52,869 nt of DNA, from NCBI GenBank assembly GCA_021779255.1, contig JAJYBC010000001.1, forward strand, positions 1 to 52,869. Reading direction: 5' to 3'. Made by a program: the position numbers and the translations under genes. This document shows, in pieces, positions 5,855 to 52,869 of this stretch. The notes under the pieces were generated by a model. The model saw only the letters and a program-made list of their open reading frames with translations, was not told the DNA's origin and searched no databases. Position 1 is the first letter of the stretch. Each line of letters begins with the position of its first letter. The stretch comes from a bacterium. GTDB lineage: Bacteria > Patescibacteriota > Minisyncoccia > CAIUEV01.

Positions 5855-5956
5855 GGGCAGGTCGCGACCTGCCCGTACAAGGCCTGCCCGTACAAGCCTT
5901 GCCCGTACTAAATCATTCCCGCCAAGGCCTGCCCGTACAAGATCTGCCCGTACGTA
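5855..5956. repeat. REP-like element: 20-bp perfect palindrome plus five copies of CTGCCCGTAC
   Basis: GGGCAGGTCGCGACCTGCCC (5855-5874), then CCTGCCCGTACAAGG-type units at about 5868, 5883, 5897, 5928 and 5943. Confidence 0.9.
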
Positions 5957-6679: not shown

Positions 6680-6955
6680 ATGGCAACGTTGATCAAACCC
6701 TTGGGAGACAATGTTCTGATCAAGGTCACGAAATTAGAGAAGAAAACTAAAAGTGGTATTGTTTTGCCGGAAACGGCCGAAGACGAAAAACCGCAAATGG
6801 GCGAAGTTATGGCTGTCGGTAATGACGAAAAGAAAATTCAAGTTAAGACTGGCGATAAGATTATTTTTGCCAAATATGCCGGCACCGAAGTTAAAATGGA
6901 TGATGAAGAATATTTAATTTTAAAATCGGAAGACATTTTGGCAATAGTAATGTAA
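6680..6955 (+). CDS. groES: Co-chaperonin GroES
   Basis: [16 protein letters not shown]...SGIVLPETA...GEVMAVG...[14 protein letters not shown], typical Cpn10. Confidence 0.95.
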
Positions 6956-6958
6956 GAA

Positions 6959-7047
6959 GGGACAGGTCGCGACCTGTCCGTACCGACCTGTCCGTACCGA
7001 CCTGTCCGTACCGACCTGTCCGTACCGACCTGTCCGTACCGACTCGG
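6959..7047. repeat. REP-like element: 20-bp perfect palindrome plus a 5x tandem 14-bp array
   Basis: GGACAGGTCGCGACCTGTCC (6960-6979). CGACCTGTCCGTAC repeats at 6970, 6984, 6998, 7012 and 7026, then a partial CGACTCGG. Confidence 0.95.
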
Positions 7048-7052
7048 TAATG

Positions 7053-8600
7053 TTATTCCACGATAATTTCCCCTGACAATTTATTGATTTTTTTGATTTT
7101 AATCAATAAAGCCAAAAAAGCTCCAGTAAAAAGGAAAAGAGAAGAAATGGCAAAAACAGTGTCATAAGCGGAAATCTGGGCTTTTAAGATAACTAACGAA
7201 ATAAATGTCGGGAGGTAGTTTGTCATTGGCTTTAAACCAATAGCGACTGAATTGATAGCGCTATGACTGGCGATGGTGAGAACGTTGGAATTGGTGGCGT
7301 CGCTCAAAATAGTACTAAAAATAGCGATGCCAAAAGCTCCCGCAATGTTTCTGGCTAAGGCGAGAATAGACGAAGCGATGCCAATTTCATTGACGGGAAC
7401 GATAGAAGCGATAATATTGGTTCTTTGCGCCATACCGAGACCCATACCAAAGGCCATAATGGAAAGGGGAATGATTATACCCAAGGCTCCCGACCGAGGG
7501 TCAAGATAAGAAAAAAGGTAAAGGCCGATTCCGGCGATGAAAGTGCTGATAGCAATAATAAAGCGAGGCTGTATTTTTTCTCCTAAAAAAACTCCCAAGG
7601 GGGAAGAAGCTACCATAATAAAGGCCATAGGGATAAATAAATAACCGGTTTGGGTGGCATCGTAGCCTAAAAAAGTTTGAGCGAAGATCGGAATCAAAAA
7701 AATACCTCCCATCATGCCCATAAAAATTAGAAAATTATTGATGAGAGTATGAATAAAAGCGCCAATTTTGAAAAATTTGAAATCGACGAGTGGCTCGGGA
7801 TGTTTTTTTTCAATCCGGATAAAAACAGCGAGAAAAATTAAGACGGAAAGATAGCAAGAAAAACTGTTGAGCGAGGTCCAGCCCCATTCCAATCCTTTGT
7901 CAAGAACCAAAACTAAAGCGGAAAGAGCGATGCCTAAAGTGCCGGCGCCCCAAAAATCAAATTTGACTGTTTTCTTTTCCGAAACGGATTCCCGAATAAA
8001 AGACATGGCCATCAAAATACCGATAATTCCGATAGGTAAGTTAATTAAAAAGACTGATCGCCAGCTAAAATTATCAATTAACGGACCTCCAATTAACGGT
8101 CCAAAGACAGCCGCGGCCGCGAAAGAGGCCGACCAAATTCCAAGAGCCTGAGCTCTTTCTTTGCCTTCGCGAAAGGTAACGGCAATGATGGCCATAGCGG
8201 TTGGATAATCGGCTGAACTGGCGATGGCTTGAATAATACGAAAAACAATCATAGAACTTAAATCCCACGCAAGTCCGGCTAGAACTGAACCGAAAATAAA
8301 AATAGAAAAACCCAAGATATAAACTTTTTTTCGGCCAATAGTGTCGCCTAATTTTCCCCAGATGGGGACGAAAATAGCGTTGGCTAAAATGTAAGCGGTA
8401 GCGATCCAGCCGGCTGCCGAAACGGTAATATTAAAATCGCCAATGATTTTTGGTAAAGCCAAATTGACGATAGTTTGATCGAGCCGTCCCAAAAAAGTAC
8501 CGATAATAACCGTAAGGAGCACCAACCAGCGCAAGTTATCGGGATTATTTTTGATTGATCTTATTTTTTTAATCATAGAAGCTAATCTTTGAAAATCCAA
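7053..8600 (-). CDS. MFS efflux transporter, DHA2 (EmrB/QacA-like, 14-TMS) family
   Basis: 515 aa polytopic protein with N-terminal LDQTIVNLALP and GKLGDTIGRKK MFS motifs. Confidence 0.8.
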   Translation of the reverse strand: MDFQRLASMIKKIRSIKNNPDNLRWLVLLTVIIGTFLGRLDQTIVNLALPKIIGDFNITVSAAGWIATAYILANAIFVPIWGKLGDTIGRKKVYILGFSIFIFGSVLAGLAWDLSSMIVFRIIQAIASSADYPTAMAIIAVTFREGKERAQALGIWSASFAAAAVFGPLIGGPLIDNFSWRSVFLINLPIGIIGILMAMSFIRESVSEKKTVKFDFWGAGTLGIALSALVLVLDKGLEWGWTSLNSFSCYLSVLIFLAVFIRIEKKHPEPLVDFKFFKIGAFIHTLINNFLIFMGMMGGIFLIPIFAQTFLGYDATQTGYLFIPMAFIMVASSPLGVFLGEKIQPRFIIAISTFIAGIGLYLFSYLDPRSGALGIIIPLSIMAFGMGLGMAQRTNIIASIVPVNEIGIASSILALARNIAGAFGIAIFSTILSDATNSNVLTIASHSAINSVAIGLKPMTNYLPTFISLVILKAQISAYDTVFAISSLFLFTGAFLALLIKIKKINKLSGEIIVE

Positions 8601-9223
8601 ACTTTAGCCGACATACCATTTTTTAATTCCGGATATTCAGTAACGCTAAAACGAATTTTAATATTAAATTCTTTTTCTTGTCGGGCGGTGGAAATATTAA
8701 AAACCACATCTCCGCTGCGAGAAGTAGGACTGATTTCTTCGACGAGACCGGAAAATTCTTTCGTCCCGAAAGCGTCTACGGTAAAAGTAACTCTTTGTCC
8801 GACTTTAATTTCATTGAGCCCTTTATCCTCTTCTATTTGAGCGATAACTTTGAGTTCATCGGGTTGAATCATCTCAGCCACGGCTTCATTGGGTGCAAAA
8901 TTCTTGCCAAGACCGTCATTGATTGAGAGAATAATACCACCAACTTTGGTTTTAACGAGACTATTGCCAACTTGAGCTACGGTTTGGTGGGCTTTAACTT
9001 CGTCGCCTGCTTTGACAAAAACGGTTTGCAAAACACCTCCGCTAGCGGAAGAAAGATCGATTAAATCAGCTTCAATAGATGAATTTTCAACATAAATACT
9101 GTTTTTTGAGAGATTAAAATAAAGAAGGCCAACAATTATTGCAACAATAAAACCGGTAAAAACGAGAATTAAAAGTGACTTATTATTCTTTTGTTCTTCT
9201 TCTTTTTTATTATTATTCTCCAT
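8582..9223 (-). CDS. HlyD-family membrane-fusion / secretion adaptor (short)
   Basis: N-terminal TM followed by a lipoyl-like beta domain (VKAGDEVKAHQTVAQV). Overlaps the MFS start and lies in the same operon. Confidence 0.6.
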   Translation of the reverse strand: MENNNKKEEEQKNNKSLLILVFTGFIVAIIVGLLYFNLSKNSIYVENSSIEADLIDLSSASGGVLQTVFVKAGDEVKAHQTVAQVGNSLVKTKVGGIILSINDGLGKNFAPNEAVAEMIQPDELKVIAQIEEDKGLNEIKVGQRVTFTVDAFGTKEFSGLVEEISPTSRSGDVVFNISTARQEKEFNIKIRFSVTEYPELKNGMSAKVWIFKD

Positions 9224-9232
9224 AAAAGTAAA

Positions 9233-10111
9233 TTAAAATCTAAATTTTATGTTGGCGCTGATACCAGAACGTAAATCGGAAACTGAATCAACGAAAATTA
9301 AAGTTATTTTATAGTTGGAAACGTTGTTTATATCCGTTTCAATCGGATCAAGAGAGGTAATTTTGGCGTTTAAAATTTTTTCTGGATTATTATCTAAAGT
9401 AATTTGAGCTAAATCGCCAATTTTTAAACGACTAATCTCGAGTAGGGAAGTGAAGCTCTCAATTTTAAAAGAATTTTGACTGACTAGCGTAATAATAGGT
9501 GTTCCAGCGCCGGCAATTTCTCCCACTTTAATATCTTGCCTGGCTATAATACCGTCGAAAGGCGCTTCTATAATCGTTTTTTTTAGTTGAGATTTAATAT
9601 TTTCAATGTTGGAAAGGGAAGCGGTAACTTGTTCTTCTTGAGCGTCAATTTGGGCATCACTGGCGGATATTTGAGCTCTTTGAGCTTTTTTGTCAGACGA
9701 ATTAGCCGTTTTAGTTTTTTTGAGAGAGCCGAGTTTAGCTTTTTGAACCTTTAGAAGCTCTTTATATTGATCCAAAATATCTTCCGAGCTTTTAGTAAGG
9801 GCTTCGGCTTGATCAAGTTGAGCTTGGAGATCGTCCGCATTAGTAGAAGCCAAAAAGTCTCCCATCTTAACAAAATCACCTATTTGATGATCTATTTTTA
9901 TAATTTTACCATTTTTTTCAAAGCCGAGATTGGCGCTATTTTCCGGAACAATTTTGCCGCTTAGCTCAATGGTATTTTGAATATTTCCTTTATTTACCAG
10001 AGTCTCTGTATGAGCCGGTCTTTTGGAAAGTGATTGGTAAAAAAATTCAGCTACGCCGCCTCCGGTGAGTAAAATAGCCAAGAGAATTAAAATAAAAAGT
10101 TTTTTATTCAT
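9233..10111 (-). CDS. HlyD/efflux periplasmic adaptor family protein
   Basis: Signal/TM, lipoyl motif (IGDFVKMGDFLAS), a coiled-coil hairpin, then a beta-barrel region. Confidence 0.65.
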   Translation of the reverse strand: MNKKLFILILLAILLTGGGVAEFFYQSLSKRPAHTETLVNKGNIQNTIELSGKIVPENSANLGFEKNGKIIKIDHQIGDFVKMGDFLASTNADDLQAQLDQAEALTKSSEDILDQYKELLKVQKAKLGSLKKTKTANSSDKKAQRAQISASDAQIDAQEEQVTASLSNIENIKSQLKKTIIEAPFDGIIARQDIKVGEIAGAGTPIITLVSQNSFKIESFTSLLEISRLKIGDLAQITLDNNPEKILNAKITSLDPIETDINNVSNYKITLIFVDSVSDLRSGISANIKFRF

Positions 10112-10219
10112 AAAGAGAAAAAAAGAAAGGTGTTAAATTGAGTTTTAAGCGTTTTATAGTCATATAGGAATAGTAAAGGTCTGTCAAGGGAAGAAAAAAA
10201 CAAAGGAGGCTCTACTACC

Positions 10220-10247
10220 TTGTCGCATAAGATACCTTGTGCGACAC
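10220..10247. other. dif-like tyrosine-recombinase core site (11-6-11)
   Basis: TTGTCGCATAA-GATACC-TTGTGCGACAC. The arms are inverted repeats (9/11). The CGCATAA arm core equals that of the XerC arm of E. coli dif (GGTGCGCATAA). Confidence 0.4.
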
Positions 10248-10510
10248 TATGTATTTATCTCCCCCGTTCCCTCAGGAGAGCAAAAAACGAATAATCAAGA
10301 ATGAAAAATAATATTTTTTTGTCAGAAAAACTTTCCGGTAAGTCTTCCCCACCTTATAGAAATATTTTTGCGAGTCTCTTGTGCCCCAAATGCTGTACCT
10401 GAGCCTCTTTTGACATATTCCCTCGATTGGTCAAAATCGGTTTTTGGCCGAAAGAGACTTCCCTGCTGATAATAAATACAAATAGGAACGAGATAATGAA
10501 ACGACATTTT

Positions 10511-10543
10511 AAATTAAAAAGCCTGATCATGTCGATCAGGCTT
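10511..10543 (-). terminator. Rho-independent terminator (minus orientation)
   Basis: Minus strand reads AAGCCUGAUC-GACAU-GAUCAGGCUU followed by UUUUAAUUU. 10-bp perfect stem. Confidence 0.75.
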
Positions 10544-11100
10544 GTGAGAAACAAAGACAAGCAATGTAAGTTTCTTGGCCAAGCGTGTTCTTGGTTTATG
10601 GTAGGCGTGAATTTTATCACCCTTTTTGTGCTACCGGCTCTTTCTTGAGCGGTACGAAAATTCCATAACCTGATGGAAAACTTAGGAAGGTGGTTATAAA
10701 AATAAACTCAAAGTTTATTTTTTGCTTCCACTACTTCAGGTTTTCTATAGCTTTGGACGCGTCAACTTACGATCACTGTTGGAGGCGATAAAGCCTTTGC
10801 TTCTCTAGGCAGAGCAAGTAAAGTTATTCCCAGTGCCCTCGGGATTTTCTTTACTGTCCGCTGTAAGTATCTTATACCAAATCAAACTAGCCGTAGTCAA
10901 TTTTCCTCATCTTGGCTCCTTCCTATTAGCGAAACTCAAGATAGAATTACGTTGGCGTTGTTGCCTTTGGGGGTTATCAATCTAGACAAAAACAAAGAAT
11001 TTCTCTCGGCATATAGCTACCTCCCGTGGTAAAAGAACTCAGCCTTTGGAATGTTGCCTGTTGCTTATTGCACGGCGAATTTTCCTCAAAAGGCATGGTA
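10544..11100 (-). ncRNA. Candidate large non-coding RNA (~0.55 kb), class unknown
   Basis: ORF-free and GC-richer than its surroundings. A CCCTTGACAG -35-like box lies at 11128-11137 (minus), but I found no convincing -10 at canonical spacing. The strong terminator at 10511-10543 marks the end. Many local hairpins are readable by eye. Confidence 0.3.
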
Positions 11101-11157
11101 AGTACTTTTAATATGGATATTTTAAACTGTCAAGGGTTTTTGGGGATAATTTGAACA

Positions 11158-11184
11158 GGGACAGGTCGCGACCTGGCCGGACAG
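11158..11184. repeat. Degenerate REP-like palindrome
   Basis: GGGACAGGTCGCGACCTGGCCGGACAG shares the CAGGTCGCGACCTG core with 5855 and 6960. Confidence 0.8.
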
Positions 11185-11209
11185 TAGTGTCGCATAATAT
11201 TTAGTGTCC

Positions 11210-12922
11210 TTACGGAGAAATACGAAAATCGCGTATAATTAAAGTTAATTTTTTTTCTCCGTTCCATTCGTCGCTACTAATCTCAAAAATGATATCTAAA
11301 AAAGTATTTTTATTGGTAACTAATGAACCGTGTCTATTCCCTTTCCCGAAGGCGATAGCCTCGAAATATTGCTCACCGTCTTGGAACCAAATTTTTAGAT
11401 GCTTATTATCGCTCCCAATTATATTACAGCCAAAAACTTTGACTTTTTCCGCTAAAAAAAGAGGAGCGGGATTGCCGGAGCCAAAAGGTTCCAGTTTTTT
11501 GAGGTCCTTGTACATTTTTTGGTTTACTTCGGTCAAAGAAATTCGTCCGTCAATTTGAATTTCTTGGACCAAATCTTTTTCCGAGAGTAATTTATCGGCT
11601 ATTTTTTGTAATTTTTTAGCCAATTTTTTTTCATTTTGAATATTAAAAGAAAAACCACCGGCGAAATCGTGTCCACCGTAATCGATAAGTAAATCGCGAC
11701 ATTCTTCCAAAGTGGCAACCACTTTGAATTTACCAAGACTGCGAATGGAACCTCGGCAAAGCTGATCCTTAATTGTATAAACGAAGGTGGGGCGAGCGAA
11801 TTTTTCGCAAATTTTTCCGGCTACCAAGCCTAAAATACCGATGGGCCAACCCTTTTGGCCGACAAAAATGAGTTTTTGATTCTTATCAACTTTTTCTTCG
11901 ATTTTCTGCACGATTTCGTGGGTAATTTTTTGTCTTTGGCTGTTTTTTTCTTCTAAATTGCTAGCAATTTTTTGCGCTTCAGCTTTTTCTTGGGTGTTTA
12001 ATAAAGCGAAAGCGAAATTAGCGTGGTCTATTCGACCGGCGGAATTAATACGAGGCGCGATTTGAAAACCAATTTGGCTGGTTCCAAGAGGATTTTTTGA
12101 GGAAAAATTTAGGCGTGCGGTTTTAAAAAGCTCTTGTAATCCAAGGCGACGAGTTTTGTTAAGAACAACCAGTCCATATTTAACTAAGGTGCGATTTTCT
12201 CCCAGTAGAGGAACCATATCGGCAACAGTTCCCAAGGCGACCAAGTCAAGAAGCCATTTTTCAAATCCGGCAGGAAATTGTTCCGGCACCTCTTTTATAA
12301 GAGCCAAGGCTAGTTTGTAAGCCACACCTACTCCCGCCAAATCTTTAAAAGGGTACCGTTCATTTTTCAATCGAGGATTGATAATAGCTAAAGCTTTGGG
12401 TAATTCTCTTCCCGGTAGGTGATGGTCGGTTATAATTACATCTAAACCAAGTTTATTGGCTTTTTCTATTTCTTCAATATCTCGAACGCCACAATCAACG
12501 GTGATGAGTAATTTTATTTTCTTTTTTTTAAATTCGGTAATGGCTGGAAAATTTAGACCATAACCTTCATCTTTTCGATCAGGAATATAAACCGTGGGCT
12601 CTGAGCCGAGAGCGGAAAGAGTGTCGCATAATATTAAAACGCTAGTTACTCCGTCGACATCATAATCACCAAAAATAGCTATTTTTTCTTTCTTATCAAC
12701 AGCTTCTAAAATACGTTTAACGGCTTTGGACATATCTTTAAAAAGAAAAGGACTATGTAATGTTTTGGTGTAATCCGGATTAAAAAAGTTTTCGATATTT
12801 ACTAAATTGTGGGGCAAACGATGATATATTAAATTTAAAATGATTTGAGAGTATTGAGGAAATTTAGTTTTGAAAGATTCGGGAGCTTGAGACAGAATTT
12901 TCCAAGTTTTACGTGAAGTCAT
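11210..12922 (-). CDS. recJ: Single-stranded-DNA-specific exonuclease RecJ
   Basis: DHH motifs (IFGDYDVDGVTS, TVDCG, ITDHH) and a DHHA1 region (GGHDFAGG). Confidence 0.9.
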   Translation of the reverse strand: MTSRKTWKILSQAPESFKTKFPQYSQIILNLIYHRLPHNLVNIENFFNPDYTKTLHSPFLFKDMSKAVKRILEAVDKKEKIAIFGDYDVDGVTSVLILCDTLSALGSEPTVYIPDRKDEGYGLNFPAITEFKKKKIKLLITVDCGVRDIEEIEKANKLGLDVIITDHHLPGRELPKALAIINPRLKNERYPFKDLAGVGVAYKLALALIKEVPEQFPAGFEKWLLDLVALGTVADMVPLLGENRTLVKYGLVVLNKTRRLGLQELFKTARLNFSSKNPLGTSQIGFQIAPRINSAGRIDHANFAFALLNTQEKAEAQKIASNLEEKNSQRQKITHEIVQKIEEKVDKNQKLIFVGQKGWPIGILGLVAGKICEKFARPTFVYTIKDQLCRGSIRSLGKFKVVATLEECRDLLIDYGGHDFAGGFSFNIQNEKKLAKKLQKIADKLLSEKDLVQEIQIDGRISLTEVNQKMYKDLKKLEPFGSGNPAPLFLAEKVKVFGCNIIGSDNKHLKIWFQDGEQYFEAIAFGKGNRHGSLVTNKNTFLDIIFEISSDEWNGEKKLTLIIRDFRISP

Positions 12923-36785: not shown

Positions 36786-36885
36786 TTTAAAATCCTCCTT
36801 TTCTCGTGACAAAAATATTTGCGACAAAAAGCAGACATTGTAAAGATCTTTTGTTCTTCCCTTTTCTCACGGTTTATCCTAAATG

Positions 36886-37161
36886 TCAACAGATTTTATT
36901 TTGCTCATAAAGCTCGCTGTGCGTTCCAATGGCCATGAAAATTATTTCGTCATTCCCTTTCTCCACGTAAAGAGCTCTGACGTCGCCGGTGATATTAATA
37001 CTGTGGAGACCTTGTAGCCTACCAACAAGAATATGATTATGTAGCAACGGAAAATTTTTATTGATAGAAAAAATTGCCACTCTCGCTCGAAATTTAGTTT
37101 GAATCCCGAGCGGACATTTTCTAAGATTCTTAATAAATTTTTTGCTATAACTTATTATCAC
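36886..37161 (-). CDS. RelE/YafQ-family mRNA interferase toxin
   Basis: HNHILVGRLQGLHSINITGDVRALYVEKGNDEIIFMAIGTHSELY fits the RelE/YafQ C-terminal pattern. 91 aa, downstream of a DinJ-like gene. Confidence 0.7.
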   Translation of the reverse strand: MIISYSKKFIKNLRKCPLGIQTKFRARVAIFSINKNFPLLHNHILVGRLQGLHSINITGDVRALYVEKGNDEIIFMAIGTHSELYEQNKIC

Positions 37162-37170
37162 TAAAGAAGT

Positions 37171-37467
37171 TTATTTATTATTTGCTCTGATGACTTTTTC
37201 ATCCAAAAATCTTAAAGATTCTTCTACACTACTAAATTTATGGTAATCTCCCTGTGCAATTTCTTTCTCCGACTCTTTTAGCATATCGAGCAAATATTTT
37301 GTCGGTTCTTCATACTGAGAGGAGAAAAAAACCGTTTCTGTTTCGACAAAATGGCGAAGGTAGGCATTGAGTAAACTACTCAGGCTGAAACCCAAATTCT
37401 TGGCGATTTTTTGGGCTTTCTTTTTGATTTTGAGATCGGTTTTGATACTGATTAAAGCGGAGTTCAT
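37171..37467 (-). CDS. RelB/DinJ-family antitoxin
   Basis: ISIKTDLKIKKKAQKIAKNLGFSLSSLLNAYLRHF is a ribbon-helix-helix DinJ-type N-terminus. Confidence 0.7.
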   Translation of the reverse strand: MNSALISIKTDLKIKKKAQKIAKNLGFSLSSLLNAYLRHFVETETVFFSSQYEEPTKYLLDMLKESEKEIAQGDYHKFSSVEESLRFLDEKVIRANNK

Positions 37468-37486
37468 TTTTTTAAATTAAATTATT

Positions 37487-37524
37487 TATACATACAAAGT
37501 ACATACAATGTATACACTTGTCAA
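37487..37524 (-). promoter_or_regulatory. Candidate promoter/operator of the DinJ-RelE pair
   Basis: Minus-strand TTGACA (37519-37524) is followed by two direct repeats TTGTATGTA (plus-strand TACATACAA at 37489 and 37500, 11-bp period). Confidence 0.3.
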
Positions 37525-37540
37525 ATTTTAGAATTTTAAA

Positions 37541-39505
37541 CTATAAAGAAATTTTATTTTTGATTTTGCGTAATTCTCCGATTTCGTCGCGAATAATGGC
37601 GGCTTTTTCGAACTCTAAATTGCGGGCGGCTTCTTTCATCTCTTTCTCCCTTTGTTTTAAGTAGCCATTTAAATCTTCCAATTTTTCCAGTTCAATAAAA
37701 TCTCGCGAAACAGTCGGCTTAATCTCGTGATCGATAATAGATTCGATTTTTTTACGAATTGTTCGAGGAGTAATATGGTTTTTTTGGTTGTAAGCTACTT
37801 GGATTCGGCGGCGACGATTTGTTTCGGAAATAGCTTTTTCCATAGAGCCAGTAATATTGTCGGCGTACAAAATAACTTTGCCTAAAACATTGCGGGCAGC
37901 GCGACCGATGGTTTGAATGAGTGAAGTTTCGCTACGTAAAAACCCTTCTTTATCGGCGTCTAAAATGGCTACTAATATAACTTCCGGTAGATCCAAACCT
38001 TCTCGCAACAAATTAACTCCTACTAAAACATCAAACTCGCCGCGACGCAGATCTTCCAGAATTTTAATACGATCGAGAGTATCAACGTCGGAATGTAAAT
38101 AACGAGTTTTAATTTTTTGTTCCGTTAAAAAATCCGATAAATCCTCGGCCATTTTTTTGGTTAAAGCGGTAATCAGCACCCTGCCCTTTCGTCGAAGAAC
38201 TTCTTTAATTTCTTCTATCAAATCTTGAATTTGATTTTTAGCCGGTTTGATAATCAACTCTGGGTCGACAAGCCCTGTCGGTCGAATAATTTGTTCCACA
38301 GTTTGAGTCGATTTCTCTTTTTCGTATTGGCTGGGGGTGGCGGAAGTAAAAATAACTTGATTAATTTTAGCTTCGAATTCTGTGAATTTAAGTGGTCTAT
38401 TATCAAGAGCGCTGGGCAGACGAAAACCGTTTTGGATTAAAGATTTTTTGCGAGCATGGTCGCCACTCCACATGGCGCCGATTTGTGGCACAGTGACGTG
38501 TGATTCATCAATGATCATCAGAAAATCTTTGGGAAAATAGTCAATAAGGGTGTACGGCGCTTCACCGGCTTTTCGACCGCTTAGATAACGAGAGTAGTTT
38601 TCAATGCCATTACAATAACCGATTTCCTTCATCATCTCTAAATCTTGACGAGTGCGACGTTCAATTCTCTGAGCTTCTAAAAGTTTTTTCCTTTGCGTAA
38701 AATATTTCACGCGCTTATTCAATTCCTGTTCAATTTTTAGAAAAGATTGAGTCATAATTGTTTCGGACACCACGAAATGTTTAGTTGGGTAGAGATAAAA
38801 ATTTTCTAATTCATTTAATCTTTTACCCGTCAGATTATCATATTCGCCAATTTTATTTATTTTGCCACCTTTAATTTCAATCCGATTGATAGTTTCTCGA
38901 GAAGGCGAAATAATCTCAAGAGTTTCTCCGCGGATTCGAAACTTGCCCCGAGCTAGAAATTCAGATCGTTCAAAATGGAGCTCGATTAATTTTTGGATAA
39001 TTTCTTCGCGATTAATTTTATCGCCAACTTGAAATTTTAGAGAAATATCTTTGTAGAAGTCCGGTGAACCTAAACCGTAAATACAAGAAACTGAGGCAAC
39101 AATGATAACATCCTTTCTGGAAAGTAGAGCTGACGTGGAGGCGTGGCGCAGACGATCAATTTCTTCATTAATTTGGACTTCTTTTTCAATGTAAGTATCG
39201 GTGCCGGTAATGTAAGCTTCCGGCTGGTAATAATCATAGTAAGAAACAAAATATTCGACAGCGTTTTTGGGGAAAAAAGCGCGGAATTCTTGAGTGAGTT
39301 GAGCGGCGAGAGTTTTATTATGAGCGATAACTAGTGTCGGTTTTTGTATTTTTTCGATAACCTTGGCCATTGTAAAAGTTTTACCGGAACCGGTGACACC
39401 GAGAAGAGTTTGGAATTTTTGTTGTTGATTTAAACCGGAGACTAATTTATCAATAGCTTTGGGTTGATCGCCGGCGGGTGTGAATTTAGAGGAAGTTTGA
39501 AACAT
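37541..39505 (-). CDS. uvrB: Excinuclease ABC subunit B
   Basis: LLGVTGSGKTFT, DESH, helicase motifs, and the C-terminal UVR domain (FEKAAIIRDEI). Confidence 0.95.
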   Translation of the reverse strand: MFQTSSKFTPAGDQPKAIDKLVSGLNQQQKFQTLLGVTGSGKTFTMAKVIEKIQKPTLVIAHNKTLAAQLTQEFRAFFPKNAVEYFVSYYDYYQPEAYITGTDTYIEKEVQINEEIDRLRHASTSALLSRKDVIIVASVSCIYGLGSPDFYKDISLKFQVGDKINREEIIQKLIELHFERSEFLARGKFRIRGETLEIISPSRETINRIEIKGGKINKIGEYDNLTGKRLNELENFYLYPTKHFVVSETIMTQSFLKIEQELNKRVKYFTQRKKLLEAQRIERRTRQDLEMMKEIGYCNGIENYSRYLSGRKAGEAPYTLIDYFPKDFLMIIDESHVTVPQIGAMWSGDHARKKSLIQNGFRLPSALDNRPLKFTEFEAKINQVIFTSATPSQYEKEKSTQTVEQIIRPTGLVDPELIIKPAKNQIQDLIEEIKEVLRRKGRVLITALTKKMAEDLSDFLTEQKIKTRYLHSDVDTLDRIKILEDLRRGEFDVLVGVNLLREGLDLPEVILVAILDADKEGFLRSETSLIQTIGRAARNVLGKVILYADNITGSMEKAISETNRRRRIQVAYNQKNHITPRTIRKKIESIIDHEIKPTVSRDFIELEKLEDLNGYLKQREKEMKEAARNLEFEKAAIIRDEIGELRKIKNKISL

Positions 39506-39569
39506 GGAGGGTAAATTTTCGTTTTATCTTCTGCACAATCTTTATAATTTCTTTTTTAGGTAGTTTAGC

Positions 39570-39602
39570 ATAAAAATAAAAAGCCCGATCGATGATCAGG
39601 CT
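39570..39602 (-). terminator. Rho-independent terminator, sequence-related to the one at 10511-10543
   Basis: Minus strand AGCCUGAUC-AUC-GAUCGGGCU followed by UUUUUAUUUUU. Shares AAAAAGCC(T/C)GATC...GATCAGGCT with 10516-10542. Confidence 0.65.
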
Positions 39603-39635
39603 ATGGTTTGAAAACAAATTACGAAGGTAATTTTG

Positions 39636-39851
39636 TTAGCGGATGTCTATGCGCATGCCGATATCGGCAGTGGCGCTGGCCATGATAAAGAAAAGATTGT
39701 TTTGGCGATGAAAGTATTCCATCTCTAGCTCGTAAGTATCTTCCCAAGAGGTGAGAACTCCGTCCTCGTGAAAATATTTTTGACGATGAATCTCTTCATC
39801 TTCCTCGAAAGCCTCAATTCCTTTAGTCACGAAATCATTTTTTTTAGACAT
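39636..39851 (-). CDS. Hypothetical small acidic protein (71 aa)
   Basis: ORF with its own terminator. No motif recognised. Confidence 0.4.
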   Translation of the reverse strand: MSKKNDFVTKGIEAFEEDEEIHRQKYFHEDGVLTSWEDTYELEMEYFHRQNNLFFIMASATADIGMRIDIR

Positions 39852-40050
39852 AGCTACTCCCTTCGTATTCTAAAACAAAAACATAGTAACAAGGTTGATT
39901 ATCGCATAGATAAACAAATTGTCAAGATGAGTGTCGCATAATAAGGAGGTGACGACAGTGGAGAAATATTTTAACACAAAAAACAAAACAAACACTAACA
40001 AAATAGTAGTGACGCCATAGATGATATAGTACTTTGTCGGATATTTCTAT

Positions 40051-49714: not shown

Positions 49715-50146
49715 ATTTTTACGATTACGAGAAAAAATACCCTTATATTCGAGTTCCCTTTTTTCATTTAGATAAAAATAAAAAGAGCTGATTTCTTGAT
49801 CACGTAAGATGAAAGAGGGACTACGAATAGCCTTATCCTGCCAATTTATTTGAAGAGAGACAGCTTGTCCGGGATAAATATTTTCAAAAACACCATACTG
49901 TCCCAGAGCTTTTTCTTGCAAAATATTTTTGATAAAAAGCTGAGCGACTACTGACTCATTTTTTGTTACTCCTTTAACGGAATAAAAAATTAAAGGCCCA
50001 TTTTCGTTTGGGCCTTGAGCTTGAGTATCGATATCAATTTTCCACCAATCTTCCCTCTCCGTGTAGCGAATGACACTTATTATGATGATAAACGCCAGTG
50101 TTGAACTCCAAAGGATGCGCCAAATTTCTTCGGCCAATTTTTCCAT
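49646..50146 (-). CDS. Hypothetical membrane-anchored protein
   Basis: 166 aa with an N-terminal TM. Its 3' end overlaps the leuS 3' end by 69 nt (convergent), so the true extent is uncertain. Confidence 0.35.
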   Translation of the reverse strand: MEKLAEEIWRILWSSTLAFIIIISVIRYTEREDWWKIDIDTQAQGPNENGPLIFYSVKGVTKNESVVAQLFIKNILQEKALGQYGVFENIYPGQAVSLQINWQDKAIRSPSFILRDQEISSFYFYLNEKRELEYKGIFSRNRKNLIHNQINNFPWDINPTTNQLSF

Positions 50147-50169
50147 AGGCGGAGAGAAAGATAAAAATA

Positions 50170-50328
50170 TTAAAAATTTCTATAAGTTTTCTCCGAACAG
50201 TTTTCTAGGGTAAGCAATTTTATCTTCTTGCTGTCATCTTCTTGAAAAATAATTCGAATATCTCCTTTTCTTATTCTAAAGATATTTTTATGTCCTTTCA
50301 ACTTTTTAATATCTAAATTAGTGTATGT
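50170..50328 (-). pseudogene. Remnant of a RelE/ParE-family toxin (C-terminal half only)
   Basis: Start-less frame gives ...LDIKKLKGHKNIFRIRKGDIRIIFQEDDSKKIKLLTLENCSEKTYRNF*, matching the L.G....yRiRiGdyRiiy pattern. A stop codon lies immediately upstream. Confidence 0.45.
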
Positions 50329-50335
50329 TTATTTT

Positions 50336-51007
50336 TTACGCCAGGGCGAGGTTGGGGGTTTTGAGGACTTCAATGACTTTGCCGTTGATGACGAAGTTAT
50401 CGCCCGGAGTCAAGTAGATCGGTTTGTGGGATTTTTCGGATGATTGAGGAAAGAGACCGATCGTATCTTGATCGATGCGGTGGAATATTTTGATAGTTGC
50501 CAATCCGTCAATGGTGGCTAGAACCTTGTCGCCATCGCGGAAATCTTTACTATCGGAATCGATTAAAACGTAGTCGCCATCCTCGATGCGTCTATTATTA
50601 ATCCTAGCTAAGTCCATTGAATTACCGAAAATTTGAATGGCAAAAAGAGCGTCAGTAATTTTCTTAGTAATAAGTCTTCGAGAAATTTTTAAATAACCCT
50701 CAATATTTTCTTGAGCAAAAAATAACGGAGTGCCGGCGCTGGCCGTTCCTAGAATCGGAACACTACAGAATTTTTTCTTACTTTGATCACAAATTTTGAT
50801 ACTGCGGTTGCCGGAGTCTCTTTGAATAAACCCCTTTTCTTCCAGATGGCGTAAATAAAGAAAAATACTGGCTAAACTTTTGGTTTTGAGTCCCAACCTA
50901 GATACCTCTTTTTGAATTTCTCGAATGGTCGGCATCCGATTTTTTTGGCCGAAATAATTTTTGATGGTTTTGAGAACAAGATCTTCTTTTTTGGTCAAGA
51001 GTCGCAT
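50336..51007 (-). CDS. lexA: LexA repressor
   Basis: N-terminal wHTH (MPTIREIQKEV), A-G-type cleavage region (LGTASAGTP) and S24 peptidase (IFGNSMDL ... K). Confidence 0.85.
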   Translation of the reverse strand: MRLLTKKEDLVLKTIKNYFGQKNRMPTIREIQKEVSRLGLKTKSLASIFLYLRHLEEKGFIQRDSGNRSIKICDQSKKKFCSVPILGTASAGTPLFFAQENIEGYLKISRRLITKKITDALFAIQIFGNSMDLARINNRRIEDGDYVLIDSDSKDFRDGDKVLATIDGLATIKIFHRIDQDTIGLFPQSSEKSHKPIYLTPGDNFVINGKVIEVLKTPNLALA

Positions 51008-51086
51008 AATATTTTGTTCACTTGTTTAATAAAACTTATACTTTTATTAAAAAGGAAAAAATATATCTTGTCAAATTTTTAAGAAT

Positions 51087-51974
51087 TTAGTTTTTACGAC
51101 ACGTTAGAAACTCAATGTAGGGAGCGTTGGTACCGGGAGCAGAGCCAGCGTTATAGATTCCGATGCCAGTTCCCGATCCGTAGATTCCGATACCTGTAGT
51201 TGAATATTCTGTGGTATGCCAATATACTCCAGCGTTTGAGCCACCACCATTATGAGTCCATCCCCATCCACCAGAAAAATTCCCCCAATGTGCATGTCCC
51301 GGATCGTAAACCCCATGTGCATGTCCTGGATCATAAACTCCGTGTGAGTGAAGTCCGATAGCTCGATTCTCTCCATCCCCCAAGGGTTGTCCCACTGTTA
51401 AATTCTTGTTGGCAGAGTTTTGAGTTCCCACCAGGTATCTGCCCTTGGCAGCCGGAACTTCACTCCAACCGGCGGGACAAGTAGTGAGGTCAAAATAAGC
51501 AATTGTTCCAGAGGGAGTGCTATCGCCACCGACTAATTCCCAAGAGGAACCATTATACATATTCATTTTTTTGGTATCTGTGTTGACAATAACTAATCCC
51601 AGTTGCGGTGAAATAATTGCATCTCTCTGTGCTGTGGTCATGCGAGGAGGTAAGAAGCCATTGCTGGTTGTTTCAATATTTAATCCAGTAGCCCGAATAG
51701 TGCCATTAACATCCAGAGTGGCTTGCGGATTATTGGTGCCAATTCCAACTAATCCTCTCTCGACAATTAAACCCAGAGTAGCTCCACCAGTGTTCAAAAT
51801 TAAACCTCCGGTTTTGATTTGGCCGGCGTTGCCAGTGTTAAGTGGCGCCGCAATATTGCCACCTGGTGGCATTTGATCAGGCTCTACCCAAGCTTTGGCG
51901 TAGAGGGTAAAAATAATCGCGAGAAAAGTAAACAAAAAAAGAAATTTTATTTTTTTAGGCATTTTTAGACTCAA
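51087..51974 (-). CDS. Secreted phage-tail-collar-domain (tail-fibre-like) protein
   Basis: Signal peptide, ATLDVNGTIRATG fibre-like block, GTIAYFDLTTCPAGWSEV...GRYLVG collar block, and tandem HGVYDPGHA x2 and GIGIYGSG repeats. Ends APYIEFLTCRKN. Confidence 0.6.
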   Translation of the reverse strand: MSLKMPKKIKFLFLFTFLAIIFTLYAKAWVEPDQMPPGGNIAAPLNTGNAGQIKTGGLILNTGGATLGLIVERGLVGIGTNNPQATLDVNGTIRATGLNIETTSNGFLPPRMTTAQRDAIISPQLGLVIVNTDTKKMNMYNGSSWELVGGDSTPSGTIAYFDLTTCPAGWSEVPAAKGRYLVGTQNSANKNLTVGQPLGDGENRAIGLHSHGVYDPGHAHGVYDPGHAHWGNFSGGWGWTHNGGGSNAGVYWHTTEYSTTGIGIYGSGTGIGIYNAGSAPGTNAPYIEFLTCRKN

Positions 51975-52718: not shown

Positions 52719-52869
52719 TCAATTTTTGCGACACGTTAGAAACTCAATGTAGGGAGCGTTGGTACCGGGAGCAGAGCCAGCATTATTTATTCCGATACCC
52801 GTTCCCGATCCATAAATTCCAATATTACTTCCTGATCCATAAATTCCAATACCAACTCCTCTTTTATCA
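52719..52869 (-). CDS. Paralog of the 51087-51974 tail-collar protein, C-terminal end only (5' end off the window)
   Basis: Translation ...GIGIYGSGSNIGIYGSGTGIGINNAGSAPGTNAPYIEFLTCRKN*. 52729-52782 are identical to 51097-51150. Confidence 0.7.
   Translation of the reverse strand, partial: DKRGVGIGIYGSGSNIGIYGSGTGIGINNAGSAPGTNAPYIEFLTCRKN

Follow-up and report, generated by a model that had tools for sequence, protein, structure and literature searches.

The longest non-coding gap in the 52,869-nt stretch of Patescibacteria DNA analysed here (the window) occupies positions 10112–11209. It measures 1098 nt, against a median gap of 52 nt, and lies between the stop codon of recJ (11210–12922, minus strand) and the start of an HlyD-HlyD-MFS efflux operon. 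The locus to which it belongs is conserved and unannotated, and it matches no described family. As a whole the gap is best explained, if tentatively, as the version, in this genome, of a non-coding locus that a family of Moranbacteria-like Patescibacteria conserves between recJ and groES, one copy per genome. On this tentative reading it has two parts: a small transcription unit that evolves fast (Part A, on the minus strand from 11133 to 10519) and, beside it, a core-plus-arm site (Part B, 10475 to 10221) that would work at the DNA level and mark an insertion hot spot. The genomes of Patescibacteria are tiny and their intergenic spacers very short, so a non-coding locus of 1–2.5 kb fixed at one place family-wide is unlikely to be idle. 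The literature that we searched holds no description of this locus.

Conservation and layout of the locus

The comparison set comprised nine relatives' loci (labelled L009 to L017), assigned to Moranbacteria where named; these are the nearest distinct relatives, with RecJ 56–61% identical. Three further public assemblies are 100% identical over the sequence and so uninformative, and RecJ scans of GTDB and JGI returned only relatives at 34–45% identity, which do not carry the locus. In all nine relatives the gene order IF3-L35-L20 ... FemAB-DUF212-recJ is followed by a gene-poor stretch and then by the 3′ end of groES. This recJ–groES stretch is 1.8–2.5 kb long and contains few or no called genes (9/9). 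The relatives' stretches are homologous to each other along their full length, with E values down to 1e-49; homology between them and the window gap is detectable only over about 10560–10145.

Read in the orientation of recJ, the family layout begins with a reverse copy of a motif that we call M (ATTGTGCGACACT) and, 4–6 bp further on, a strong promoter P1 of the form TTGACAA-N16/17-(TG)nTATAAA. After a leader, AAGGAGGT and a start codon are conserved; a variable interior of 560–1700 nt then leads to an intrinsic terminator T1. Beyond the terminator comes a block of 249–274 nt that combines an AT tract with GGGAA(G) repeats, all on the same strand; next to it stands a 26-bp inverted repeat in which two M arms surround GGTATC. 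After about 450 nt more of conserved DNA the layout closes with a third copy of M, M(c), which is in forward orientation, and the groES 3′ end. Single elements are missing in places: M(a), the copy next to recJ, is absent from L009 and L016, the canonical palindrome from L016 and L017, and P1 from L010. The window retains the layout as far as the inverted repeat, and the efflux operon replaces everything beyond.

Two further features of the relatives' loci were noted. A block of about 100 nt past the palindrome (AGGGCTTYCRTATTTGCG..AAGGSCAGGATAATTT..GGGTACMTAGATGTATMCCC, preceded by TTCATG/ATGCTT repeats) is very highly conserved and has no Rfam match. It was located at about 6089–6164 in L009 and 8045–8120 in L010 and is also present in L011, L012 and L015–L017; in the window it is absent, with the efflux operon in its place. 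L013 alone has a 138-nt inverted repeat (87% identical, rich in short TCATT repeats; 6747–6884 and 8718–8854), one arm of which stands right after recJ and the other right after the palindrome.

Part B, a candidate DNA-level site

Across the eight genomes aligned (alignment A1) Part B keeps its length of 249–274 nt and the order of its motifs. With a profile built from these eight, each of ten genomes proved to contain exactly one copy, and the other DNA searched gave no match. GGGAA recurs on one strand three to six times, usually four to six, within about 250 nt, in the relatives as in the window. The core is of dif type, TGTCGCAYAA-N6-TTRTGCGACA, with centre and inner arms invariant in the eight genomes: the inner 14 nt (ACAAGGTATCTTAT) do not vary at all, and the two inner arms consistently differ from one another (CACAA versus CATAA). 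An invariant inner 14 nt combined with a consistent asymmetry of the arms is expected of a site whose centre a protein contacts or cuts.

The preliminary description of this DNA, made from its letters alone, had seen in 10249–10510 a second structured stretch ending at a dif-like hairpin. The stretch is indeed conserved in sequence, but not in fold. RNAalifold, run on 10213–10475 with the eight genomes, returned the palindrome hairpin only, with 0 compensatory or covarying pairs, and that hairpin is broken in L010 at three pairs; the proposed AGUCUCUU/AAGAGACU pairing is not conserved. Part B, having neither consensus fold nor covariation, is therefore most likely a protein-binding or recombination site acting at the DNA level. 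What did survive comparison is the likeness to dif, since 10221–10246 has the form of a tyrosine-recombinase core site. We regard Part B as most likely a DNA element composed of a core inverted repeat and arm-type repeats, a layout like that found with tyrosine recombinases.

Motif M outside the core

M is also a dispersed, strand-polar motif, conserved across the family. TGTCGCAYAA occurs six times in the window where 0.09 are expected, and M-like sites were found 10 times against an expectation of 1.67. The direct copies of TGTCGCATAA at 10221 and 11188 and the repetitive extragenic palindromic (REP)-like palindrome (11162–11175) previously reported to flank the block are present as described. 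The copy next to recJ, M(a), has the same position and orientation in seven relatives, and in six relatives its homologue abuts the −35 box of P1. Seven single M-like sites (at most two mismatches to AGTGTCGCAYAATAT) all lie on the plus strand, at 2465, 8340, 11186, 12620, 23588, 39930 and 50998. With the exception of 2465 their reverse complement lies on the sense strand of the local gene, so that strand polarity and sense-strand placement are indistinguishable in the window. Among them are a copy at the start codon of lexA (50998–51012) and one in a variable segment of recJ, where M is found in three genomes. Other intragenic copies stand in a glycosyltransferase gene and an MFS gene and, in the relative L018, in bipA and msrA. 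Two more copies lie 50 kb away in the L012 genome, with the polarity of M(a).

Variable genes stand just outside M copies: the efflux operon beside the palindrome in the window, AbiE in L016 and L017, and LigT in L009, L016 and L017, where the ATG of the gene is the ATG of M(c). PemK lies between recJ and M(a) in L014, and extra DNA is found at the same border in L010, L013 and L017. In the mechanism that we propose, a protein would bind the M arms (AGTGTCGCAYAAT), and M copies would mark borders at which accessory genes are exchanged, as may have happened here with the efflux operon directly beside the palindrome.

M is probably not the LexA box, because an M-like site at the start of lexA occurs only in the window, the lexA gene of L018 is without it, and both lexA genes have GAACAAGYGAACA upstream. 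That sequence lies just after a −10-like box (about 51015–51026, minus strand, in the window; about 9960–9975 in L018) and, as a direct GAACA repeat, is a candidate LexA box for the lineage.

An unannotated unit resembling Part A was noted elsewhere in the window, at 39540–39990 on the minus strand. It has a reverse M (39944–39930) within a second TGTCG-N16-CGACA palindrome, TTGACA-N16-GATAAT, a Shine-Dalgarno (SD) sequence GAAGGGAG, an open reading frame (ORF) of 71 aa without Pfam match (39851–39636) and a terminator stem AGCCTGATC as in T1, and it sits just upstream of uvrB (37541–39505). The possibility that Part A is a decayed paralogue of this 71-aa ORF was rejected, only the promoter with M and the terminator being alike, as was the idea that the two M-bounded units are copies of one element, which have nothing in common beyond the inverted repeats.

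Part A, a putative transcription unit

Part A appears to be a real transcription unit, either a fast-evolving small-ORF operon that has decayed in this genome or a species-specific RNA. Transcription would run on the minus strand from P1, a promoter of sigma-70 type, to T1, across SD sequences and short ORFs that are intact in some relatives (25–55 codons) and reduced to 11 and 7 codons here. The promoter-to-terminator bracket had been proposed before; it spans the first 600 nt, and the same pair stands at the equivalent place in the relatives. Its minus-strand terminator, a hairpin at 10543–10519 with 11 pairs and a T-rich tail, likewise recurs there. The promoter had been thought poorly supported. 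P1 (TTGACA-N17-TAAAAG) is positionally homologous to the relatives' TTGACA-N16/17-(TG)nTATAAA. The last base of its −10 hexamer is G, which is why our promoter scan did not list it. Both −35-like CCCTTGACAG boxes are on the minus strand as described, the first at 11127–11136, one base from where it had been placed; two copies alone are not beyond chance.

The gap had also been described as having no SD, which does not hold: GGGAGGT (11025–11019) and AGGAAGGAG precede the 11- and 7-codon ORFs. The 11-codon ORF is the vestige of an Arg-rich ORF1 (25–55 aa) found behind the same SD in L009, L011, L012, L013 and L017. ORFs in L015 and the window have only 7–29 codons, and L014 has none. Pfam gave no match for the relatives' small ORFs.

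What is conserved in Part A is its ends, namely promoter, SD and terminator. Among relatives whose RecJ proteins are 73–79% identical to each other the interior has 46% column identity, close to noise. On our reading Part A does not belong to any conserved family of structured RNAs, its interior evolving too fast. As part of the same tentative reading we take it, in this genome, to be in effect either a non-coding transcript peculiar to the species or a small-ORF operon in decay.

All the hairpins listed in the preliminary description are present in the sequence. Compared with dinucleotide shuffles, 10510–11100 is the more stably folded on either strand (z −4.6, minus; −4.2, plus). A scan in 200-nt segments confines the excess to 10400–10800 (z −3 to −5.1) and finds 10800–11200 ordinary, no more structured than the flanking genes. 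The signal is strand-symmetric, and DNA palindromes therefore explain it equally well.

Table 1. Positions of the features discussed, in window coordinates
Feature	Position	Strand	Description
Promoter P1	11105–11133	minus	TTGACA (11133–11128), 17-nt spacer, TAAAAG (11110–11105); read from the sequence
First SD with 11-codon ORF	10977–11025	minus	GGGAGGT (11025–11019), 6 nt before ATG (11012); peptide MPREILCFCLD
Second SD with 7-codon ORF	10887–10924	minus	SD AGGAAGGAG; ORF 10910–10887; at the place of the relatives' ORF2 (29–52 aa)
Hairpin cluster upstream of terminator	10545–10800	minus	Only part of the gap with exceptional folding energy (z −3 to −5.1)
Intrinsic terminator T1	10519–10543	minus	AAGCCTGATC-GACAT-GATCAGGCTT, 11 pairs, then T-rich tail
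Part B arm	10247–10475	minus	Four same-strand GGGAA(G) repeats near 10463, 10422, 10349 and 10271; AT-rich tract
Part B core	10221–10246	none	26-bp inverted repeat TGTCGCATAA-GATACC-TTGTGCGACA; two M arms, invariant 6-bp centre
M copy (a)	11186–11200	plus	AGTGTCGCATAATAT, exact match, 10 nt downstream of recJ stop
REP-like palindrome	11159–11178	none	GGACAGGTCGCGACCTGGCC, core CAGGTCGCGACCTG; between M(a) and P1; lineage-specific
Second CCCTTGACAG box	10181–10190	minus	Presumed −35 of the efflux operon
HlyD-HlyD-MFS efflux operon	7053–10111	minus	At the place of about 450–900 nt of conserved non-coding DNA and the third M copy in relatives

Known RNA families and coding potential

The block is a genuine, non-random, non-coding feature, as had been proposed: six-frame translation yields no ORF above 88 aa in any frame, and the longest stop-free frame has 117 codons. 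Its reported GC enrichment is real but slight (0.394 in the gap versus 0.362 over the whole window). Scanning the window with Rfam 15, whose models include RNase P, signal recognition particle (SRP) RNA, 6S, group I and II introns, riboswitches, OLE, ROOL, GOLLD, HEARO and raiA, gave nothing in the gap at the gathering threshold, and with E values up to 10 gave only two chance-level matches in 10000–11400. In the nine relatives' loci the same models (E up to 1 and gathering threshold) found only tmRNA and tRNAs, outside the gap. The earlier failure to recognise a known RNA by eye is thus borne out by covariance models in both the window and its relatives.

Nor is the gap a recognisable decayed protein-coding gene, with no Pfam match in any frame of at least 45 codons, no tblastn similarity and no remnant of a paralogue. 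Open frames become longer if TGA is recoded, yet tblastn finds no relatives of the product. A decayed groEL or other paralogue was rejected, since a tblastn search with all the proteins of the window as queries had no match in any gap. A 549-aa protein of the window has, by eye, a CTP-synthase-like N-terminus and is not GroEL. Phage or plasmid origin was rejected as well: the palindrome has no match in IMG/VR, and the whole gap none in phage and plasmid collections.

The palindrome does not lie at a replication terminus or origin. Cumulative GC skew rises monotonically over the window with no switch at the palindrome, and same-strand genes to either side of the site have equal skew in the window, L010, L011, L012 and L015. 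As to an origin, each gap has at most two single DnaA boxes (one mismatch) and no skew switch.

The efflux operon as the inserted element

Since it stands where the relatives have conserved non-coding DNA, the efflux operon is a lineage-specific insertion. The block itself had been thought to be an integrated module between two repeats. On the comparative evidence the relation is reversed, the block being the resident part of the locus and the operon, in this window, the insertion: the layout of motif, promoter, terminator, repeats and palindrome is recognisable in the relatives, the variable parts lie outside the M copies, and the repeat is dispersed. Part B has the same place and orientation in 10 of 10 genomes, and no empty site was seen.

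The REP-like palindrome is a lineage-specific addition, absent at the equivalent place in the relatives. Its perfect palindrome CAGGTCGCGACCTG has three copies in the window (at 5858–5953, 6959–7045 and 11159–11178), all intergenic, against 0.04 expected. Two of them are followed by tandem repeats, one with a 15-nt unit (5.7 copies) and one with a 14-nt unit (5.3 copies, 100% identical). In GCA_027351095.1, an assembly of the same strain, only two copies of the 14-nt unit stand at 6970–7043, so the length of the array varies.

Alternative explanations

Several observations weigh against a fast-evolving unit beside a DNA-level insertion site. On the side of Part A, its segments outfold shuffles in seven of seven genomes tested (z −2.1 to −13), which makes hairpin richness a conserved property; Part A may accordingly be a structured RNA that evolves fast. 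On the side of Part B, M lies 4–6 bp upstream of the P1 −35 box in six relatives, and of the second promoter at 39.9 kb in the window; this closeness to promoters would suit the operator of a transcription factor no less well. At its far end the efflux operon carries no M copy but a REP-like palindrome and tandem repeat. The ten genomes yielded no occupied/empty pair of sites with duplication of the core, and no recombinase gene lies within 5 kb of the locus in any genome compared. Two rival accounts concern Part A. That it, or the whole gap, represents a new family of large structured non-coding RNA (ncRNA) transcribed between the CCCTTGACAG promoter and the terminator, as the preliminary description had it, we judge very unlikely. 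The promoter–terminator unit does exist, its two ends conserved in position, and besides the folding excess in the seven genomes GC reaches 0.50–0.55 in four relatives and in one hairpin before the terminator L011 and L015 differ by one compensatory change. Nonetheless the evidence does not support a large structured RNA that is conserved: no Rfam match appears even at E up to 10, the interior is unalignable at RecJ identities of 73–79% and has no conserved loops or junctions, length ranges from about 560 to 1700 nt, and in L013, L014 and the window GC does not depart from the genome average. Moreover, the window's excess structure is limited to the 250 nt before the terminator and equal on both strands, and relatives have strong SD sequences with ORFs. 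For RNA discovery this carries a caution, in that a long, hairpin-rich, slightly GC-enriched gap with promoter and terminator is here insufficient to establish a structured RNA. Alternatively, Part A could be a decayed operon of two small proteins, an Arg-rich ORF1 (25–55 aa) and an ORF2 (29–52 aa), intact in some relatives and pseudogenised here. We hold this to be unlikely, if less so than the ncRNA. It would account for the conserved strong SD and start codon, for ORFs of similar length in L009, L011 and L012 that have weak common motifs (RRPNRS, REP; GQ..S.AP.A) and in-frame indels, and for an Arg-rich remnant in a shifted frame beside the window's truncated ORFs. It fits poorly with very weak peptide conservation, with the short or missing ORFs of L015, the window and L014, with the lack of a Pfam family, and with ORFs that span less than one third of the unit.

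The main rival to an insertion site, one that we consider somewhat unlikely, is that M and the palindrome are operators, a transcription-factor dimer binding TGTCG-N16-CGACA and single M sites near promoters and controlling Part A, the efflux operon and the small ORF upstream of uvrB. M-like sites are enriched, and their place beside P1 in six relatives agrees with it. A profile of the M-plus-promoter module matches the window at 39943–39898 (E 7e-6), upstream of the 71-aa ORF and uvrB, where the second palindrome of this spacing also lies, and the palindrome at 10221–10246 is only 38 nt upstream of the efflux −35 box. An invariant 6-bp centre with asymmetric inner arms would be unusual for operators, however, several copies are intragenic, and M is probably not the LexA box. 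Spacing varies, too: M is 4–6 bp from the −35 box in the six relatives and at the 39.9-kb site, while further copies lie within genes or 38–56 nt from the promoter. In the window the REP element puts 56 nt between M(a) and P1, which speaks against a strict requirement. If M were an operator, it would define a hitherto unknown regulon touching recJ, uvrB and the efflux pump. Least probable of all, and highly improbable, is that the palindrome is the dif site of the chromosome, at its replication terminus, with polar M copies orienting a translocase towards it. The 11-6-11 form and the inner arms CATAA/TTATG, which we take to resemble the E. coli XerC arm GGTGCGCATAA, speak for it, as do the single occurrence of the full element in each genome, the convergence of flanking genes on the site in all genomes and the gathering of accessory genes. 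So does polarity, the single M copies on the recJ side all pointing in one direction (window, L012/L018) and M(c), on the other side, being inverted. GC skew, however, is unchanged in sign and size across the site after gene-strand correction in the window and four relatives, and a second palindrome of the same spacing stands at 39.9 kb. A more specific form of the insertion-site reading, distinctly unlikely in our estimate, is that Part B and the M copies constitute a previously undescribed gene-capture site of Patescibacteria, with a dif-like core and attP-like arms at a fixed locus away from the terminus and no adjacent integrase; the efflux operon, LigT, AbiE and PemK would be its swapped cassettes, and the dispersed half-sites would be secondary or orienting. 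A recombination or capture site at Part B would show how reduced symbionts gain efflux pumps, toxin–antitoxin pairs and abortive-infection genes.

Comparison with known systems

The closest likeness of the Part B core is to dif and other core sites of tyrosine recombinases (XerC/XerD, XerH, XerS, XerA), with inverted arms of about 11 bp, an invariant 6-bp centre and inner arms CAYAA/TTRTG; as with dif-type sites, the full element occurs once per genome and accessory genes gather beside it. Unlike them, this locus is not at a GC-skew switch, no recombinase is linked to it, and its arm sequence is dispersed as single, strand-polar copies, some beside promoters. The attP sites of lambda type consist of a core flanked by arm-type repeats and AT-rich bending sites. 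Part B is similar in its arm of about 250 bp, with same-strand GGGAAG repeats and an AT-rich tract beside the inverted-repeat core, and relatives have a second conserved arm on the other side. The present locus differs from attP in being chromosomal, syntenic and vertically conserved, with no adjacent integrase, no phage, plasmid or IMG/VR match and no duplicated core around inserts.

Large GC-rich intergenic ncRNAs such as OLE, ROOL, GOLLD, HEARO and raiA were found by the reasoning that first drew attention to this gap. It shares with them great length without ORFs in an AT-rich genome, a promoter and terminator, and many hairpins, but not a covariance-model match, conserved internal blocks or, in Part B, covariation. 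Part A also recalls RNAIII/hld, SgrS/SgrT and SOS loci of the tisB type in that a strong promoter and an SD with its very short ORF are followed by a long, structured remainder and a terminator, all in a region left empty by gene callers; its ORFs, unlike theirs, are Arg-rich rather than hydrophobic and are not conserved, and no antisense partner or target was identified. Like REP elements and bacterial interspersed mosaic elements (BIMEs), CAGGTCGCGACCTG beside M(a) is a dispersed, intergenic, perfect palindrome, but it explains only 20 nt of the gap and is a lineage-specific element absent from the relatives' loci.

Additional observations

The next longest gaps of the window are 36828–37540 (713 nt) and 49715–50335 (621 nt), the latter partly overlapped by a 166-aa ORF without Pfam match. 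A perfect 13-nt tandem repeat of 7.6 copies lies at 455–553. Two 27-nt tandem repeats (51284–51346 and 52789–52860) are found in or beside two genes without Pfam match upstream of lexA, and TTTCTAACGTGTCG(C/T)AAAAA occurs both upstream of lexA (51110–51091, within 51087–51974) and upstream of a 232-aa gene (about 52737–52718).

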